A DNA stretch of 63,127 nucleotides, filler included, from Collodictyon triciliatum (Eukaryota), in the NCBI GenBank assembly GCA_043381765.1. It is 45 parts of 45 records of this genome, joined end to end, with 100 filler letters (N's around TTAATTAATTAA, not from the genome) between each part and the next. Parts side by side here need not be neighbours in the genome. Positions count along the whole stretch, not along the records: positions 7,061 to 8,371 come from JBHJMP010011465.1; 44 more parts are not named here. One strand, written 5' to 3'. Shown here piece by piece: positions 6,410 through 46,340 of this stretch (position 1 is the first letter of the stretch; every line of letters begins with the position of its first letter). The position numbers and the translations under genes were made by a program. Below the pieces are notes generated by a model that saw only the letters and a program-made list of their open reading frames with translations, was not told the DNA's origin and ran no database searches.

Positions 6410-6960
6410 TATTCACCCTTTGAATTTGCGCATGATGGCGGAGATGTTGGCTTTGGCTCGCCAGCCATCGTTTGCATGGACGCTACTTGGTGGCCGGGTG
6501 GCAGAGAAGTAGTCGGTAATCAGTAATTGCATCCTGCGCTTTGGCCTGTAGCCTGGGTCTTGTGCTTGCATGAGAGATACAAGGCGAGGTTTAATCTCCT
6601 TCTCAGCCTCTTTCCACATGTATCTTCTCACAGGGTCTGAGTAGTAGAGAACGTGCAGGTGGCGAAGAAAGCTGTTGAGGAAGGAGATTTGTATGATGTC
6701 ATCCAGCCTATAATCAGGAATGGGTGGCTGGTTGTTGAGTCTTGCTTTGCGTGAGTATATGCGCGCTATCCACATAGTCCATAGCAAATGGCCTCGCGTC
6801 GCTGCCCAGAATGTTTTTGCATCTGGACGCAGCTGTTGCAGAGGCCCAAATATCGCCTGGATTGGGCCAACAGCCGCAGCCGTCTTGAGTGTCAGTCGAA
6901 GAATCTCACCGGCTGTTTCGCGCAGGTTTTGAGCGAAGGGACATTGCACAAATGTGTGCT
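6410..6960 (-). mobile_element. LINE family B ORF2 C-terminus (end of CCHC zf-RVT region) to stop
   Basis: HTFVQCPFA..IFGP..LLWTMWIAR..SFLNS; homologous to but diverged from family A. Ends ANISAIMRKFKG*. Confidence 0.85.
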
Positions 6961-7663
6961 NNNNNNNNNNNNNNNNNNNNNNNNNNNNNNNNNNNNNNNN
7001 NNNNTTAATTAATTAANNNNNNNNNNNNNNNNNNNNNNNNNNNNNNNNNNNNNNNNNNNNATAAAGATAAAAATAAAGATAAAAATAAAGATAAAAATAA
7101 AGATAAAAATAAAGATAAAAATAAAGATAAAAATAAAGATAAAAATAAAGATAAAGATAAAAATAAAGATAAAATAAATATGAACAAAGCAAAACATCAA
7201 GATAAATGAAGTGAAGCAGGGTCTTGTCTAAATAATCCAGGGTATGTACCATCAATAGGAAAACTTATACTATTGGACATTGCGTAGGAAAAGCCTTTCG
7301 GAAAAAAAAAACCTTTTTGTTTGGACGTGGCAGACGATCGCAACCGCTTGGGGGGTGGTTGGGAATCTTCTTCTGGTCGCGGCTCGATCGGATCCGTGGT
7401 GTCGGAAAATAACGTTTATGTGCAGGCCCTCTGCAAAACGCCCTCATAAAGTACAAAAGAGAAGGTAAGAGATCGTTTGAGTGAATCCATCCTCAAGATG
7501 CACGAGTCCTTTGAGCTTTCTCAAGGTGTGTTTGCATGTTGGAAGCAGGATTCCCTTTGTTTTAGTCTGGGTTTTGATACTACCCACAAAAAGCAGAACA
7601 TATTTGCTGGACATGTGGTATCATACCATTTATGGAAAATACAGATGAATGCTTTTACACCCA

Positions 7664-7844
7664 TTTTTTTATTCTAAAAATCTTGGCTGTTGGGCCCGTC
7701 TCAATAATATTTCATTCAACCATCAGGCAAGTAGTTCCAAAGTAGGTGAGGATGTGTGGGAGATAGAAAAAAAAGAAAAAACAGGGATAAAAATAAAGAA
7801 AAAGGGAAAAAAAAACGATGCAAATATATTTTAGTCTATCCTTT
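7664..7844 (-). mobile_element. Element C, copy 2 (3' part)
   Basis: Homologous to 1-143; ends AATAAAAAAA on the minus strand. Confidence 0.75.
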
Positions 7845-8197
7845 ATATTGTTCCGGTATTTCGAGATTCTTGAAGATGGCCTTTTTTAACTTTCGTAACT
7901 CTGCTTTTTTTTTTTAAATAGGTTCATTAATATTCTCATCTTAAGGAACTGTTTGATTTATAAAGCGCAGTAACCTCTTTACAAAATGTCCCTTAATGTT
8001 ATTATGATAAGCTGTTAACATTTGCTTCGCCAAGTATGGTAATACGTGAGACAGTCTAACCAACGGAAAGCGTTCTTCTCGGGACAAAAGGAATCGAAAA
8101 TCATAGAGATAAAAAGTCATCATGTCATCTCTCATATCTGGTTTTTTTTAAAACTTGCGTGTCTATCTTGTGAAACTATTCCGACTGTCTTTAAAGC

Positions 8198-8200
<3 letters not shown>
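7845..8200 (-). pseudogene. Fanzor1-like (TnpB-related) protein fragment, N-terminal helical region; frameshift and stops
   Basis: Translates YALKTVGIV../..DMMTFYLYDFRFLLSREERFPLVRLSHVLPYLAKQMLTAYHNNIKGHFVKRLLRFINQT. This resembles, from memory, the YCIKTLG..FY..LL..LPYLA.Q..T..HNN...HF....LRFIN block of mimivirus-type Fanzor1 proteins. No RuvC region present. Confidence 0.72.
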
Positions 8201-8235
<35 letters not shown>

Positions 8236-8296
8236 ATAAAAATAAAGAAAAAGGGAAAAAAAAAAAACGATGCAAATATATTTTAGTCTATCCTTT

Positions 8297-8371
8297 CGCT
8301 ATCACTGATTTCTTTCCGGTGCTAGCCTCTCCACGGTAGTGTCTTCTCCTACTCGCGTTTGCTCTCTCCCA
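8297..8371 (+). mobile_element. LINE family A 3'-region fragment (5'-truncated)
   Basis: Matches the reverse complement of ~24878-24952. Confidence 0.85.
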
Positions 8372-9070
8372 NNNNNNNNNNNNNNNNNNNNNNNNNNNNN
8401 NNNNNNNNNNNNNNNTTAATTAATTAANNNNNNNNNNNNNNNNNNNNNNNNNNNNNNNNNNNNNNNNNNNNTGTTTTTGTTTTTGTTTTTGTTTTTGTTT
8501 TTGTTTTTGTTTTTGTTTTTGTTTTTGTTTTTGTTTTTGTTTTTGTTTTTGTTTTTGTTTTTGTTTTTGCAGTGAGGAAGCACGGTGTGTTTGGAGCAGT
8601 TTGGTCACAAAGGACAGACGCGGATATGTGAGGGAAGAATCACGATCGGGCTGCGCCAGGGGCAAGAATTACTGGGCCTGAGAGTCCACGAGTCTGTGGT
8701 TGTGCTTTGTGCGCCTCAGAAGAAGCCTTCCGCGAGGTGATCTGAGAACATTATTGGTGATCGTGAAGGGTTGGTGCGAGTGAATCAGTGTGGGCGTTGC
8801 GTTCTGTGTGGCCTATCAGGGTGGATGGAATCTGGATTCCTTTGTCCCGTATATATATATATATGTATTATAATGTATATATGTATATTTATTTGGTATA
8901 TTAAATTAATTATCAAATTATATACACTTAAACATAAACTAATATTATAATTTCCATAAATATACAGGCTTGTTTCCATCGCAGCGAAAGCGAAGAGCTT
9001 CATCGTTTCAACCAAACACAAACAAAGTTTGCCAAATCACTCGCCGGATAAAAAATCAGGAAGGAAGAAA

Positions 9071-9513: not shown

Positions 9514-10076
9514 GTTAGCTGTAAATATATTTCCACATCCAACTCATGTCCTAATAAAAAAAAAAAACTCACTAACCTGTGCTATATATAGATGTATTCT
9601 CTTTCATACTTTCCTATGTAATATGTAATATTTTCGTTTCGATTATCATAGTTATACTTCCAATTATGTATGTATGTATGTATGTATGTATGTATGTATG
9701 TATGTATGTATGTATGTATGTATGTATGTATGTATGTATGTATGTATGTATGTATGTATGTATGTATGTATGTATGTATGTANNNNNNNNNNNNNNNNNN
9801 NNNNNNNNNNNNNNNNNNNNNNNNNNTTAATTAATTAANNNNNNNNNNNNNNNNNNNNNNNNNNNNNNNNNNNNNNNNNNNNCATATATATATATATATA
9901 TTTATATGAAAACTGAAAATAAAAAGATATTTAGTATGCAGTATCATAGAGTTGGGACCAATCTATATCTAGTGTTGTTGAATTATAATACAGAATAACA
10001 CTCATATTTTATAGCCACTCTTCTCTCATCAAACTGCTTCCAAATAGCCTTAAAATTTATGGAATTCCTATTGTAG

Positions 10077-24811: not shown

Positions 24812-25282
24812 ATATTTCCTTTTATTCAATTCAAAGTGTAGCGAGGTTATGCCACACAAAGGGGCGGGATGGAGCGCATGGGAGAGAGCAAACGCGAGTA
24901 AGGGAAGACACTACCATGGAGAGGTAGCACTGGAAAGAAGTCAGTGATAGCGAGTTGGTCAGGTGGGCGTCCCAACTCGTTGATTGGTTGCGTGGGTAGC
25001 AGGGGTTGGGTATGATGTGGGAGATATCGCACGACGCATTCCCACATCTCTCTTTGCTTGCGGTCAGAGTAGCGAAGAATGCGAGCGTGTTTCAGCAGGC
25101 TGTTCAGGAAGCTGTATTGCACGAGGCTTTCAAGCCTGGATACATTGATTTCTCGTTCGGGTGAATCATTGGAGCGAGAGAATGCACGCACACTCCATAA
25201 AACACAGCATATGTCCCCTTGCGACTGTCCAGAGTATTCTAGAGTCGTGGGTCATTTGGTATTGTGCGCCAAACAGGATGTC
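24812..25282 (-). mobile_element. LINE family A 3' end
   Basis: Overlaps the 32200-32311 copy (DSRILWTV). Ends ggcataacctcgctacactttgaattgaataaaaggaaa. Confidence 0.88.
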
Positions 25283-37925: not shown

Positions 37926-38027
37926 NNNNNNNNNNNNNNNNNNNNNNNNNNNNNNNNNNNNNNNNNNNNTTAATTAATTAANNNNNNNNNNNNNNNNNNN
38001 NNNNNNNNNNNNNNNNNNNNNNNNNCT

Positions 38028-39329
38028 CAGTCTCAGTCTCAGTCTCAGTCTCAGTCCCAATCCCAATCCCAATCTCAATCTCAATCTCAGTCCCAATCCC
38101 AATCCCAATCCCAATCCCAATCCCAATCCCAATCCCAATCCCAATCCCAGTCTCAATCTCAATCCCAATCTCAATCTCAGTCTCAATCTCAATCCCAATC
38201 TCAGTCTCAGTCTCTGTCTCAATCTCAATCCCAATCTCAGTCTCAGTCTCAGTCTCAGACTCAATCCCAATCTCAATCTCAATCTCAGACTCAATCTCAA
38301 TCCCAATCCCAATCTCAATCTCAATCTCAATCCCAATCTCAGTCTCAGTCTCAGTCTCAGTCTCAGTCTCAGTCTCAGTCTCAGTCTCAGTCTCAATCCC
38401 AATCCCAATCCCAATCTCTGTCTCAGACTCAATCTCAATCTCAATCCCAATCTCAGTCTCAGTCTCAGTCTCAATCTCACTCTCAGTCTCAATCTAAGTC
38501 TCAATCCCAATCCCAGTCTCAATCTCAATCTCAGTCTCAATCCCAATCTCAGTCTCAGTCTCAATCCCAATCACAGTCTCAATCCCAATCTCAGTCTCAG
38601 TCTCTGTCTCAATCCCAATCCCAGTCTCAATCTCAATCCCAATCCCAATCCCAATCCCAATCTCAGTCTCAATCCCAATCTCAGTCTCAATCCCAATCTC
38701 AGTCTCAATCCCAATCCCAGTCTCAATCCCAATCCCAATCCCAATCCCAATCCCAATCACAGTCTCAATCCCAATCTCAGTCTCATTCTCAGTCTCAATC
38801 CCAGTCCCAATCTCAGTCTCAATCCCAATCTCAATCTCAGTCTCAGTCTCAGTCTCAATCCCAATCTCAGTCTCAGTCTCAATCCCAATCACAGTCTCAA
38901 TCCCAATCTCAGTCTCAGTCTCAGTCTCAGTCTCAGTCTCAGTCTCAGTCTCAGTCTCAATCCCAATCTCAATCTCAGTCTCAGTCTCAATCCCAGTCTC
39001 AGTCTCAGTCTCAGTCTCAATCCCAATCTCAGACTCAATCTCAATCCCAATCCCAATCTCAGTCTCAATCTAAATCCCAATCCCAATCCCAATCCCAATC
39101 TCTGTCTCAGTCTCAATCCCAGTCTCAGTCTCAGTCTCAATCTCAGTCTCAATCCCAATCTCAATCTCAGTCTCAGTCTCAATCCCAGTCTCAGTCTCAG
39201 TCTCAATCCCAATCACAGTCTCAGTCTCTGTCTCAATCCCAATCCCAATCCCAATCCCAATCTCAGTCTCAATCCCAATCTCAGTCTCAGTCTCAATCCC
39301 AATCACAGTCTCAATCCCAATCTCAGTCT
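38028..39329 (+). repeat. Hexamer mosaic repeat TCYCAR reading (Ser-Gln)n over ~434 codons
   Basis: Units TCTCAG/TCTCAA/TCCCAA/TCCCAG/TCACAG; hexamer phase consistent from end to end. Confidence 0.9.
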
Positions 39330-39587
39330 NNNNNNNNNNNNNNNNNNNNNNNNNNNNNNNNNNNNNNNNNNNNTTAATTAATTAANNNNNNNNNNNNNNN
39401 NNNNNNNNNNNNNNNNNNNNNNNNNNNNNATGTTTTTTATGTTTTTTATGTTTTTTATGTTTTTTATGTTTTTTATGTTTTTTATGTTTTTTATGTTTTT
39501 TATGTTTTTTATGTTTTTTATGTTTTTTATTTTCATAGTTTTGTTTTGTTTATGTTAAAATTTCTGCAGAAGAATCACACGCACTTG

Positions 39588-40733
39588 ATGAAAATTGCGG
39601 CTGTGCAAAACCCCTCCGAGGAACAAAAAGTCACGTTTTCACAGGCTTGGCCAGAGGAATATCCTGGGAACAGCGTCGCATGTGCTCCAAAAGAAATAGG
39701 GGTATCACCAGCAGTCCCTATTGAGCCTGCCAGTGGTTATGAAAGAATGGAAGGAAACAAATCAGCAATTATTTTACAGATTCGTAAAAGTGAAACGTTG
39801 GTTGAGCGTCGTAGGACTGTGCTTATTGAACTAATCAGCAATCAACGAGTATCTGAGATTGTCATCGCTTTTTATCGCATAAAAAGTGTGCAATTATTTT
39901 TCACCCCAATCTTGTGGTTTATTTGCACAATTGTGTGTCTTTCAGTGTGCTTCGGTAAGCCGCTTGTCTCTCCGCCAGCTTATGTACCGCTTCAAATCAT
40001 ATGCATTCTTAATTTCTTTTGCAACCATTTCATCTACATGCGAGTGGATATCATCAAAGCACTGGCAAAATCTTTCAACTTCTGGTTTCTAGTTTTCAAT
40101 CTCTCATCTGCATCTCTGTGCTTTATATTGTTATGGGGATACAGTCTTGTTTCCGTATGCGCGGCAATTCATTTTCTGTGTAGCCTTCTTTTCATGACTC
40201 TTTACGACTCTCATTCTAAAAGAACCTCAAGGCTGATGGTCATGTCTAGCCTTTTGGCATTTCTGGGCATCTGTCCTGCCATTCCCATTCTGTCCTTGAG
40301 CCTGACAAAGTTTGAGACAGAGGCGGTCTATTTGGGCTCTGGAATTGAGATTGTCAACATCAGACTTCAGGCTCTTGACAATTTGACCACATTGATTATG
40401 TATCTCATTCGTATATTCTATACCCAAGTTATTCGTAAGAAACCAAATACAATCACATTCTTGTCCGAGTTTTATGAAATCCTTGCCGATGGCCAGTATC
40501 AAAACCAAGCGACCAACACGACCAATTTCTCTATCCAAAACAAGCAGGAAGCAGGTCCCTCTGGGGCGCAGCATGAAACAGAGCTCTCCGAGATGAATTC
40601 GCAACCAATCGCGCCCAAAGATATGGATGCGCGTCAAAACCAAAACCAAAACCAAAACCAAAACCAAAACCAAAACCAAAACCAAAACCAAAACCAAAAC
40701 CAAAACCAAAACCAAAACCAAAACCAAAACCAA
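39588..40733 (+). CDS. Intronless multi-pass membrane protein with C-terminal (QN)n; 3' end truncated
   Basis: ~380 open codons with about 6-7 hydrophobic segments. Confidence 0.75.
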
Positions 40734-42136: not shown

Positions 42137-42236
42137 NNNNNNNNNNNNNNNNNNNNNNNNNNNNNNNNNNNNNNNNNNNNTTAATTAATTAANNNNNNNN
42201 NNNNNNNNNNNNNNNNNNNNNNNNNNNNNNNNNNNN

Positions 42237-45634: not shown

Positions 45635-46340
45635 CCTTTATAAAAGAAAGAGGATGCAACTGACCTCAGAGACTGGCGCCCGACATCGCTGCTCAACAAC
45701 GACTACAAGATATTTGCCTCAATCCTAAGAAACCCAATCTCTGATATCGCCGACAGGCTCATATCAAAGGAGTAAATAGGATTCATGCGTGGCAGGAACA
45801 TCGACACAAACATATGGCTCGTGAACAAGGAATACATGGAATATCAAGTCTCCAAAGACCCGCGCATCATGATATTTTACGACCTTGAAAAAGCGTATGA
45901 CTATGTGAACCATGAAGCCCTAGAAATCATCCTACAAAAGCGAGGATTCTGCTCAAAGTTCACCACACTTATCAAGAAGCTACACGACAACGCCGCAACT
46001 AGGGTTCTGACTGCACACGGCCCTACTGACATAATCCAGAGACAAAGCGGCGTCTACCAAGGATGCCCTCTGGCGCCGCTTCTCTTTAACTTTGTAGCCG
46101 ACTGCCTTGCAATCCACTTCAGAAACAACAACAAAATCCGCAACCAGTTCCTCCTGCAATATGCCGACGATACAGCCTTCATTCTTCGCTCCCCTGAAGG
46201 CGCTATCCTGGCAAATAAGTGTATGCAAGAATACACACTTGCAGTCGGAGGTAAAATCAACTTCAACAAAACAGACGGTATCCTATTCGGCCTACAGGAT
46301 GGTGGAATCCTACCAGAAAACATCGACTGGAAATACTCAA
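45635..46340 (+). mobile_element. LINE RT core fragment (diverged from family A; in-frame stop)
   Basis: DWRPTSLLNNDYKI, DLEKAYDYV, GVYQGCPLAPLLF, QYADD. Confidence 0.95.

Follow-up and report, generated by a model that had tools for sequence, protein, structure and literature searches.

Known Fanzor1 systems and the locus

Fanzor1 proteins are descendants of TnpB in eukaryotes and giant viruses, and they are omegaRNA-guided RuvC endonucleases carried by transposons. In the solved Fanzor1 structures, helix alpha-4 recognizes the TAM and makes contact with the first guide:target base pairs. Three such structures were compared here: GtFz1 of Guillardia theta (9cer), SpuFz1 of Spizellomyces punctatus (8gkh), and PpFz1 of Parasitella parasitica (9cf0). 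According to the accessible part of PMC10432273, the REC extension that contains the block surviving in our sequence is specific to Fanzor1, and S. punctatus carries 42 SpuFz1 loci, which are either full-length (19) or partial. The available portion of PMC10530073 gives up to 122 Fanzor copies per genome and describes an association of Fanzor1c with LINE elements.

The DNA analysed here (the window, 63,127 nt) is a string of unlinked contigs of ~1.3 kb, and the real context of the locus is therefore limited to the small, repeat-rich contig at 7061–8371. On the minus strand of this contig, positions 7845–8200 are very probably the remnant of a Fanzor1 gene, now a pseudogene fragment. Compared with the solved Fanzor1 proteins, it retains about 115 codons in a broken frame; they amount to ~18% of the protein and belong entirely to its N-terminal REC side. 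The 78 residues at the N terminus, the remainder of REC and WED, the RuvC triad, the zinc ribbon, and the 3′ omegaRNA region are missing. Degraded eukaryotic Fanzor loci are likewise multi-copy, with intact and degraded members, and the copy in the window is a degraded one. Unlike those loci, it is an internal piece lying amid other repeats; the inverted repeats found in 7000–9000 were only linkers and A/T-rich runs, and no transposon ends were recognized there.

Homology to Fanzor1

The fragment, read from 8200 to 7845, was collinear with residues 79–193 of a full-length relative of 648 aa, P0005. When P0005 was searched against the 63-kb window by tblastn, the identity was 66.7% over residues 79–96 and 59.4% over residues 96–193 (E = 2.4e-27); the sole further match had an E-value of 9.5, and no second Fanzor piece was found. 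A family profile, which was built without the window sequence, recovered the 68-aa open piece of the fragment (P0001) with an E-value of 6.2e-22 among 2294 six-frame pieces of the window and found no Fanzor piece outside the fragment. Another profile match, at 58669–58989 (E = 0.17), was rejected as the translation of a microsatellite (NIHTNIQT...; hhalign probability 3.8%). The hhalign comparison of P0001 with the family gave a probability of 99.4% (E = 2.3e-21). P0001 was 69% identical to P0005 and kept nine of the ten invariant family positions. It also matched GtFz1 (9cer) over residues 4–64 with an E-value of 2e-5, at a modest score of 28 bits, and the next non-Fanzor match had an E-value of 0.5.

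In the PDB copy, P0005 matched 9cer (2e-28), 9cf0 (3e-24), and 8gkh (4e-23), and what followed was noise at an E-value of 0.38 or worse. A 24-sequence profile retrieved the three Fanzor1 chains only (2e-56, 2e-55, and 1.5e-47) at E ≤ 1 and covered SpuFz1 over profile positions 3–603 of 618; no TnpB or Cas12 chain of the PDB copy was matched by the family profile at this threshold. TnpB (IS200/IS605 and IS607) and Cas12 are ancestors or relatives of Fanzor, and their RuvC, zinc-ribbon, and WED/REC plan is kept in the full-length relatives. The RuvC D/E/D residues (D364, E555, and D604) were invariant in 24 of 24 relatives, the CxxC pairs were invariant or nearly so, and P0005 retained both the RuvC and the zinc-ribbon motifs. 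The local Pfam gave P0005 only a sub-threshold match to PF07282 (Cas12f1-like TNB; 13.1 bits, where the cut-off is 26.3). The precomputed label PF26935.1, which is missing from the local Pfam copy, was present on P0005 and on all 120 relatives listed.

The likeness to Fanzor1 claimed by the sequence-only reading was thus supported by the match to 9cer, by the identity to P0005, and by the fact that P0005 matched Fanzor1 structures only. The check it had proposed, a comparison of the peptide with Fanzor profiles, gave significant results and no better unrelated family. The notion that the resemblance arose by chance, or comes from some unrelated protein rich in helices, could appeal to the local Pfam, in which no family matched the fragment at E ≤ 10. 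It is refuted by the E-values of the independent profile and of tblastn, by the hhalign comparison, by the collinearity over three reading-frame pieces, and by the invariant positions kept in P0001. The link of the fragment itself to Fanzor1, as judged from these alignments, is carried by its putative REC part alone.

The surviving REC block

Within the open piece, the block RLSHVLPYLAKQMLTAYHNN (7998–8057, minus strand), which the same reading had pointed out, is assigned to REC helix alpha-4 of GtFz1 (S123..N142). This predicted domain assignment was based on sequence alignment to the solved structures and on residue roles given in the accessible part of PMC11423790. In that text, S123, H126, and Y130 of GtFz1 are TAM contacts, and T137 and N141 contact the third base pair. 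The residues named there fit the aligned GtFz1 string, and an offset of 410 between the numbering of the GtFz1 alignment and that of the paper was inferred from how six named residues are spaced. The fragment aligned to the REC region of GtFz1 with moderate identity in the block. In the alignment of P0001 with 9cer, the equivalents of H126, Y130, T137, and N141 were retained, and the S123 equivalent was Arg; this position is Gly in P0002–P0005.

Decay of the reading frame

The first coding piece, YALKTVGIVSQDRHASFK (8147–8200, minus strand), was delimited by frame translation and by tblastn with P0005. Its frame (8287→8132) ends with ...FFFFYALKTVGIVSQDRHASFKKNQI and a stop codon. Its similarity may extend two to three codons into the T-run, where the relatives (the P0002 and P0005 sequences) read FFLYALK. 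The frame is lost in a minus-strand A8 homopolymer at 8142–8149, which the sequence and the run analysis located at a site that reads K-H-P in the relatives; the copy in the window has two extra bases there, and in contigs from the sequencing runs other copies lacked one, two, or three bases at 8148–8149. The next minus-strand frame (8147→7944) reads KKPDMRDDMMTFYLYDFRFLLSREERFPLVRLSHVLPYLAKQMLTAYHNNIKGHFVKRLLRFINQTVP and corresponds to P0001, the piece that carries the 9cer, profile, and hhalign matches. It is closed by the first in-frame stop, TAA at 7941–7943, where most other copies have AAA (Lys): the depth with the other base at 7943 was 3.02 of 3.02 in X1, 119 of 126.1 in X3, and 71.1 of 77.9 in X4, depths of placed contigs that are not copy numbers. 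X3 and X4 may be RNA data, and the depths are not read as expression. A second in-frame TAA (7914–7916), seen in the sequence and in the tblastn alignment, adjoins an expanded A-run, and six nucleotides at 7911 were missing in some copies in the run contigs. The last collinear piece, KKKAELRKLKKAIFKNLEIPEQYK(G) (7839–7913, minus strand), was found by tblastn and matched profile positions 173–196 in collinear order (E = 0.28). The coding similarity continues to about 7845–7839 (..AELRKLKKAIFKNLEIPEQYK), and beyond this end P0003 and P0004 go on with ...EWAIAHL....

One substitution lies inside the open piece. At 7989–7991 (minus strand), the alignment of relatives and the run contigs placed a GGA (Gly) codon where 24 of 24 aligned relatives have Glu (E148 of P0005). 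At position 7990, every contig covering the site (one in X1, 11 in X3, and nine in X4) had the other base, which gives GAA. The change from Glu to Gly is private to the copy in the window.

Instead of an uninterrupted frame of ~600–700 codons, the locus holds about 115 codons, which are interrupted by one frameshift and by TAA stops at two places. Neither a RuvC-coding piece nor a zinc ribbon was found in the window by tblastn with P0005 or by the family profile, and the contig does not contain the 3′ end of the Fanzor1 gene, at or beyond which the omegaRNA would be encoded. The copy in the window is dead and has no nuclease or guide function, because domains are missing and the remaining part carries the frameshift, the two stops, and the private loss of an invariant Glu. 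The reading made from the sequence alone had proposed a minus-strand frame with one frameshift and stops downstream and had called the copy not functional; the frames described above confirmed the former, and truncation at both ends together with these lesions supported the latter.

The frameshift was also seen in public sequencing data. A contig from a freshwater metagenome matched 8004–8154 with no difference over 151 nt, the frameshifted A-run included, and a contig from a lake-water run bridged the left junction over 7699–7911 with three differences and one 5-nt insertion. Therefore, the fragment sequence is probably not an assembly artefact. In the placement of contigs, 8190–8269 (a repeat, at the right junction) and 7785–7815 (low complexity) were masked.

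These data also bear on the proposal that the region belongs, as one exon or another part, to a live Fanzor gene with introns, and that its breaks are sequencing errors. Eukaryotic Fanzor genes can have introns (PMC10530073, accessible part), and the frameshift sits in a homopolymer, a common place for sequencing errors. However, the metagenome contig reproduces the frameshifted A-run exactly, the two stops reflect substitutions and lengthened A-runs, and the Glu that the relatives share without exception has gone. In addition, a GT or AG splice signal could be read from the sequence at neither boundary, the flanks are unrelated repeats, and no further Fanzor piece occurs on the contig or in the window. 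We consider this proposal very improbable, and the pseudogene reading is retained.

A multi-copy family

Three other fragments with 82–86% identity were found in public data, and the runs of two coded organisms contained many contigs that were 85–99% identical. From these two organisms 132 and 113 contigs were placed, and 11–12 and 8–10 distinct contigs, respectively, lay over single positions of the fragment. At most 0.19 of the sampled words occurred in any one sequencing run. It had been claimed earlier that this genome hosts or hosted a Fanzor family, so that intact copies may lie on other contigs. The related fragments and the contigs of the two organisms spoke for a family in part only, since the window held no other piece of it and the intact relative P0005 could not be tied to this genome.

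The fragment is a marker of a Fanzor1 lineage that is only 36–50% identical to giant-virus forms in this region. This lineage has lived and spread to many copies in the present genome or in close relatives of it, and the fragment points to a full-length relative, P0005, with intact catalytic motifs. Surveys of natural RNA-guided nucleases search by the RuvC domain (PMC10530073, accessible part). Such surveys would miss relics that consist of REC only, and fragments of this kind can therefore flag genomes for a full search.

Relationship to giant-virus Fanzor1

The closest full-length relatives found were the Fanzor1 genes of giant viruses (38–47% identity to P0005). These genes (IMG/VR, many of them GVMAG; ~620 aa) belong to the same family and length class as P0005. 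In the viral contig collection, searched with the alignment as query, 457 of 533 candidate stretches encoded Fanzor1 relatives, and by our own count 34 of the 80 viral loci kept bore GVMAG names. At two loci (L001 and L004), the gene was surrounded by genes for an mRNA-capping enzyme, the small chain of ribonucleotide reductase, HSP70, and an SNF2 helicase. The attribution of the motif spacing to proteins "of mimiviruses and protists", made before any database search, was in substance borne out by these candidates, names, and neighbours. A DDE_3 transposase (Tc1/mariner or IS630-type) lay near the gene in 30 of the 80 loci, whereas no DDE_3 match was found in the window.

Other searches returned little. 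P0005 alone against the viral contigs yielded 36 pattern matches, none of which was confirmed, and the phage collection gave one match at chance level (E = 9). Among the JGI metagenome contigs, searched with the alignment of close fragments, one of 50 candidates was confirmed (36% identical), and no close copies with context were obtained.

For the phylogeny, a tree was built by a quick method from P0005, 25 viral-contig proteins, one metagenome protein, and 22 database proteins. The branch of P0005 was long (1.26), its fork was not resolved, and P0005 was not nested in a viral clade; the tree gave no direction of transfer. P0001 was 36–50% identical to 23 aligned relatives of P0005, compared with 69% to P0005 itself; at least two of these relatives, P0006 and P0030, were virtually identical to viral-contig proteins.

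The abundance of the closest full-length relatives in viral contigs and the viral neighbours at the two loci would fit an origin of the fragment as a remnant of an integrated giant-virus genome rather than of a cellular transposon family, as would a DUF5906/VapE-like helicase ORF on an unlinked contig of the window. Against this, the contig carries no viral gene, and its flanks are repeats that are common to other contigs of the window and occur at high depth in two organisms. The many diverged copies of the fragment region fit amplification inside a cellular genome. Moreover, P0001 stands much closer to P0005 than to the 23 aligned relatives, P0006 and P0030 among them, and P0005 is an unplaced branch that does not fall within a viral clade. 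A viral remnant therefore appears improbable.

A wider picture can be drawn tentatively, which as a whole we regard as rather unlikely: a distinct Fanzor1 lineage, related to but not nested among giant-virus genes, would have amplified to many copies, probably in a freshwater eukaryote, with P0005 and its full set of catalytic motifs as the known full-length member. Pieces of this lineage would be reshuffled as antisense transcripts are reverse-transcribed, the copy in the window would be a retrocopy with an unusually long target duplication (61–64 nt), and the same genome would hold, at other places, intact nucleases that may be active, together with their omegaRNAs.

Flanking repeats and arrival of the fragment

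LINE-mediated retroposition classically leaves a copy that is truncated at its 5′ end, has an A-run at its 3′ end, and lies between direct repeats. On the plus strand, the contig reads 61-nt repeat, antisense Fanzor1 fragment, A33, and 64-nt repeat. Repeat search and alignment placed the left copy at 7784–7844; it is composed of the A-rich end of a short repeated element, Y, and 29 nt that occur nowhere else in the window. The right copy (8233–8296) is the same except for A12 in place of A9. Directly after the antisense fragment, the run analysis identified an A33 run (8200–8232, plus strand), which may be the poly(A) tail of a retrocopy, so that an A-run is followed by a direct repeat that also precedes the insert. 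Element Y (7664–7815, plus strand; 89.6% match to window positions 140–1) has an A-rich tail and a 5′ end common to several copies; its loose ends were at 7664/7665 in X2 and X4, and others were at 7771 and 7774. To the right, a high-copy repeat, Z (8297–8371, plus strand; 92% match to 24953–24879), is cut at its 5′ side, and its other copies in the run contigs have different sequence leftward. Within repeat Z lies the coding sequence for a C-terminal tail (AITDFFPVL...), which belongs to a repeat-borne ORF related to the ORF at 6413–7012 (31% identity, E = 3e-14).

Because of this layout, retroposition was considered. An RNA running antisense through an already decayed Fanzor copy would have been reverse-transcribed, and a 5′-truncated retrocopy would have been inserted by target-primed reverse transcription, with a target-site duplication of 61/64 nt and the A33 as its tail. 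The layout suggests such an event without proving it. The locus shares with LINE-mediated retrocopies the 3′ A-run, the flanking direct repeats, the truncated 5′ end, and the overlap at the junctions, with 4-nt overlaps on the left and a homopolymer on the right. However, several features speak against it. The RNA that was copied would have run antisense to the Fanzor1 gene, a duplication this long is unusual, neither AATAAA nor another canonical poly(A) signal could be read from the sequence before the A-run, and the A-run begins where the gene has a T-rich FFL stretch. Neither an empty site nor a source copy was seen. The end of the right repeat also coincides with the start of repeat Z. Finally, one contig of organism B (160 nt) extends into the left repeat by 29 nt at ~89% identity, just under the 31 nt of the bridging rule used in contig placement, and this hints that the left junction may be older than, or common to, other copies. 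Arrival as a 5′-truncated retrocopy of an antisense RNA is a serious possibility, to which we give somewhat less than an even chance.

Much of the same evidence can be explained at the DNA level, without RNA, by partial duplication in tandem (period ~450 nt) or by microhomology-mediated repair with Fanzor sequence as filler. Short overlaps are present at both junctions (AAAG/CTTT at 7844|7845 and the homopolymer at 8200), and 7784–8296 amounts to 1.13 units of a 449–452-nt period (repeat spacing 452). The exact stop of the right repeat at repeat Z and the possible presence of the left junction in the diverged contig of organism B are also in its favour, and element Y normally has the A-rich part of the repeat as its tail, as its loose ends at 7771 and 7774 indicate. 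On the other hand, neither the left copy nor the other Y copy seen has the pure A33; they have AAAAAAAAGAAAAAAC and AAAAAGAAAAAC before GGGAT. Also, the elements of the retroposition signature occur here together. We judge an origin at the DNA level to be about an even bet. The choice bears on the arrival of the relic only and leaves its identity untouched. If the retroposition reading of the flanks is confirmed, the locus would show on a small scale that parts of a DNA-transposon gene are moved by the machinery of retroelements.

Other features of the contig and the window

No Rfam family matched the contig 7061–8371 (E ≤ 1) or the whole window, and the tRNA search found none. The promoter and terminator scan remained at chance level; it is of the bacterial type and not relevant to a eukaryote. 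Elsewhere in the window, the DUF5906/VapE-like helicase ORF fills its contig, and another contig carries an Ephrin-receptor-like ORF, whose best matches (35–36% identity) bear scattered protist and ctenophore names.

Identity of the Fragment

The fragment at 7845–8200 (minus strand) contained a 68-aa open piece, P0001, and a local Pfam search of this piece matched no family. In a large protein collection, four longer relatives of P0001 were found at E ≤ 1 among 12 candidates. P0002–P0004 were short fragments of 137–143 aa with 82–86% identity to P0001, and P0005 was a protein of 648 aa. The identity of P0001 was 69% to P0005 versus 36–50% to the 23 other relatives aligned with it (alignment A1). 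P0005 carried the motifs GVDPGK, NEFRTSKLCCNC, and TRDFNSANNI, which represent the RuvC D, E, and D residues with the zinc ribbon. In a tblastn search of the whole window, residues 79–96 of P0005 fell on 8200–8147 and residues 96–193 on 8147–7845 (59–67% identity, E 2.4e-27); the sole other match was at chance level (E 9.5).

Among sequences of solved structures, P0005 matched the Fanzor1 proteins of Guillardia theta (GtFz1, E 2.1e-28), Parasitella parasitica (E 2.7e-24), and Spizellomyces punctatus (SpuFz1, E 3.7e-23), and nothing significant was found beyond these three, the next matches being myoglobins (E 0.38 and worse). The A1 profile gave only the three Fanzor1 chains at E ≤ 1 (2e-56, 2e-55, and 1.5e-47), spanned SpuFz1 nearly end to end, and met no TnpB or Cas12 chain at that threshold. 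The profile check bore out the sequence-only reading of a Fanzor1-like fragment: P0001 itself matched GtFz1 directly (E 2e-5, residues 4–64), and the A1 profile, in which the window was not included, scored P0001 at E 6.2e-22 among the 2294 six-frame pieces of the window. The collinear piece after it (7839–7913) scored weakly (E 0.28), and the profile found nothing else credible among these pieces. The comparison of P0001 with the family by hhalign gave a probability of 99.4%. No unrelated family gave P0005 a better match among the solved structures.

Reading Frames and Defects

Translation confirmed that the fragment reads on the minus strand from 8200 to about 7845, as had been read from the sequence. 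Its first frame ends in YALKTVGIVSQDRHASFKKNQI at a stop. A frameshift lies in an A8 run (8149–8142, minus), and P0001 (8147→7944, minus) reads KKPDMRDDMMTFYLYDFRFLLSREERFPLVRLSHVLPYLAKQMLTAYHNNIKGHFVKRLLRFINQTVP before a TAA. Beyond this stop come DENINEPI, a second TAA, and then KKKAELRKLKKAIFKNLEIPEQYK in the same frame; the two in-frame TAA stops are located at 7943–7941 and 7916–7914 (minus). Nine of the ten invariant family positions within P0001 were retained (F107, Y108, L124, Y133, T140, N145, F157, N159, and T161), and the tenth, E148, was Gly in the window copy when compared with A1.

Contigs from public sequencing runs (X1–X4) were aligned to 7600–8371, which indicated the defects that were private to the window copy. 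At 7990, all aligned contigs (one in X1, 11 in X3, and nine in X4) had the base that restores GAA (Glu). At 7943, the depth carrying the base with which the first TAA reads AAA (Lys) was 3.02 of 3.02 in X1; X3 had 119 of 126.1, and X4 had 71.1 of 77.9. Lys was also found at this position in P0002 and P0003. In some other copies the A8 run was 1–3 bases shorter, and in some the A-run next to the second stop was shorter by 6 bases. A 151-nt contig (record 7) of the freshwater-metagenome run X2 reproduced 8004–8154 with zero differences, the frameshifted run included. Therefore, the frameshift is probably real and no error of this assembly. The X2 and assembly data may be related.

The copy, which had been considered not functional, is dead: it is truncated, frameshifted, interrupted by two stops, and has lost an invariant Glu. 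The RuvC triad, the zinc ribbon, and an intact frame were each tested in the window sequence, and all were absent. The window sequence is thus derived from a Fanzor1 gene, yet it is no Fanzor1 nuclease.

Surviving Part of the Protein

The fragment represents residues 79–193 of the 648-aa P0005, ~18% of the protein. As described for GtFz1, the TAM is read by REC helix alpha-4, at its N-terminal end, and by a WED helix; S123, H126, and Y130 (and Q278) are required for cleavage, and the third guide:DNA base pair is held by T137 and N141 of alpha-4 (Xu et al., 2024; PMC11423790). The five REC residues had exactly the expected spacing in the aligned GtFz1 string SLSHVLAYSIDNLLTAYKNN if the chain numbering was offset by 410, a value that we inferred from residue spacing, and R85 was consistent with the same offset in the P0005–GtFz1 alignment. 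From this spacing, the window block RLSHVLPYLAKQMLTAYHNN (8057–7998, minus) corresponds to alpha-4, and the motif picked out in the sequence-only reading is thus the helix that reads the TAM and contacts the seed. The equivalents of the alpha-4 His, Tyr, Thr, and Asn were retained in this block. The equivalent of S123 was Arg in the window copy and Gly in P0002–P0005. The fragment stops well short of the WED residue Q278 of GtFz1 and long before RuvC.

A Probably Multi-Copy Family

In two small runs from the coded organisms A and B, 132 and 113 contigs aligned to 7600–8371 with 85–99% identity, and single positions of the fragment were covered by ~8–12 different contigs. P0003 and P0004 extend beyond the 3′ boundary of the window copy (…EQYKEWAIAHL…), and P0002 extends beyond its 5′ boundary (…SFFLYALK…). 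The window copy is therefore secondary, a remnant of a longer gene that is truncated at both ends. No second Fanzor piece was found within the 63-kb window by tblastn or profile. Nearly identical pieces occurred in a lake-water run and in a freshwater metagenome run, which weakly hints at the habitat of the host.

Fanzor1 has been reported in fungi, protists, arthropods, plants, and giant viruses, and in S. punctatus full-length (19) or partial genes were described at 42 loci (PMC10432273). A survey listed 3655 Fanzors, as many as 122 of them in one genome, and four Fanzor1 clades, of which Fanzor1c prefers LINE, CMC, and Mariner/Tc1 elements (PMC10530073). Degraded copies of eukaryotic Fanzors are therefore to be expected. 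The fragment is chiefly useful because it flags a Fanzor1 lineage, probably multi-copy, in a eukaryote.

Relatives in Giant Viruses

Among 7037 candidates of similar length to P0005, 243 relatives were found at E ≤ 1e-5. The best 120 of these had 37–46% identity, all 120 carried the precomputed label PF26935.1, and one was named "Transposase, viral metagenome". A search of all protein representatives gave 3147 matches at E ≤ 1e-3, of which 1703 reached E ≤ 1e-10 and 537 reached E ≤ 1e-30. Relatives were encoded by 457 of 533 candidate stretches in the viral contig collection (IMG/VR); 80 of the 457 were retained, with 38–47% identity, and by our count 34 of these 80 had "GVMAG" in their names. 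In a tree of 49 proteins built by a quick method, P0005 sat on a long branch, and the fork at its base was unresolved. The data show the window family to be akin to the Fanzor1 genes of giant viruses, with no direction of transfer readable.

At two viral loci examined, a 634-aa Fanzor1 gene adjoins a divergent DDE_3 plus HTH transposase, and the surrounding genes encode mRNA-capping enzyme, SNF2-type helicase, ribonucleotide reductase small chain, and HSP70. A DDE_3 match was present near Fanzor1 in 30 of the 80 retained IMG/VR loci, which suggests a two-gene Tc1/mariner-type unit within viral genomes; no DDE_3 match was found in the window. The DDE_3 plus HTH_28 transposase, divergently oriented beside the Fanzor1 gene, occupied 6641–7678 (-) in locus L001 and 6648–7676 (-) in L004, and the distance between transposase and Fanzor1 was ~320 nt in L001, L002, and L004.

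Layout and Possible Origin of the Fragment

The window contained 89 N runs, with regular 100-nt linkers (44 N, TTAATTAATTAA, 44 N) between ~45 unplaced contigs ordered by size from ~1311 down to ~1297 nt; it is a bin scaffold. Neighbouring contigs are therefore physically unlinked, and the true surroundings of the fragment comprise only 7061–8371.

Within this contig, the repeated element Y with its A-rich tail (7664–7815, +; 89.6% identity to window 140–1) is followed by 29 nt that were found nowhere else in the window, the fragment (7845–8200, antisense on the plus-strand layout), and a run of 33 A (8200–8232, +). After the A-run, the last 32–35 nt of the Y tail and the same 29 nt appear a second time. 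The two direct repeat copies (7784–7844 and 8233–8296) are identical except for A9 versus A12. Next comes Z (8297–8371, +), a high-copy repeat truncated on the 5′ side; in its other copies the left-hand sequence differs. A lake-water run contig (record 1) bridged the left junction over 7699–7911, where it showed 3 differences plus a 5-nt insertion.

Target-primed reverse transcription is recognized by an insert and a poly(A) run flanked by direct repeats, by loss of the 5′ end, and by overlap at the 5′ junction, which here is 4 nt. The fragment would then have been copied from an antisense RNA, truncated at the 5′ end, and inserted with an A-run and a target duplication by LINE-type target-primed reverse transcription. 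We consider this retroposition somewhat less likely than not. Against it, the RNA that was copied would be antisense to the Fanzor gene, the duplicated stretch is very long, and no AATAAA was found before the A-run, whose start falls on a T-rich part of the gene (codons FFL). In addition, the end of the right repeat is the exact edge of Z, and a diverged contig of organism B (record 19) extends 29 nt into the left repeat. We give about an even chance to the explanation that a duplication or repair event at the DNA level placed the fragment.

Y (7664–7815; 1–140 in reverse) consists of ~105 nt and a tail rich in A that carries GGGATAAA motifs. It looks SINE-like, several copies had the same 5′ end, both within the window and in runs X2 and X4, and tRNA and Rfam searches of Y gave no match. 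Z had by far the highest summed contig depth in X3 and X4 and encodes the tail of an ORF related to the 199-aa ORF at 6413–7012. This C-terminal tail (…AITDFFPVL… or …LLITDYF…) was observed at 8297–8371, 24847–25251 (-), and 6413–7012 (-). The two longer Z-type ORFs shared 31% identity (E 3e-14), and no family was found for them by Pfam search.

Other Contigs

An RVT_1 reverse-transcriptase fragment (E 6e-19) was found on another contig at 45776–46396 (+); retroelements are present in this genome. Long microsatellites were observed at contig ends (7061–7180, 8472–8575, and ~9650–9782), with units of 12 nt (ATAAAGATAAAA), 6 nt (TTTTTG), and 12 nt translating as MYVC; these terminal microsatellites probably explain why the contigs stayed unplaced. 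A weak profile match at 58669–58989 was rejected as a translated microsatellite. The region 38001–40000 had a strong negative GC skew (-0.49) and several overlapping 467-aa frames open on both strands, for which a Pfam search gave no match; it is probably a simple or tandem repeat.

A 469-aa open frame spans the whole contig at 14070–15479 (+), with matches to DUF5906 (E 4e-10) and a VapE-like domain (E 2e-7). Its domains are those of a D5-type primase-helicase, a protein type known from large DNA viruses, virophage-like elements, and phages. The frame may represent either an endogenous viral element or contamination. An intron-free frame of 465 aa with nine Ephrin-receptor-like cysteine-rich repeats fills the contig at 42189–43586 (+), and its best database relatives, with scattered protist and ctenophore names, were only 35–36% identical.
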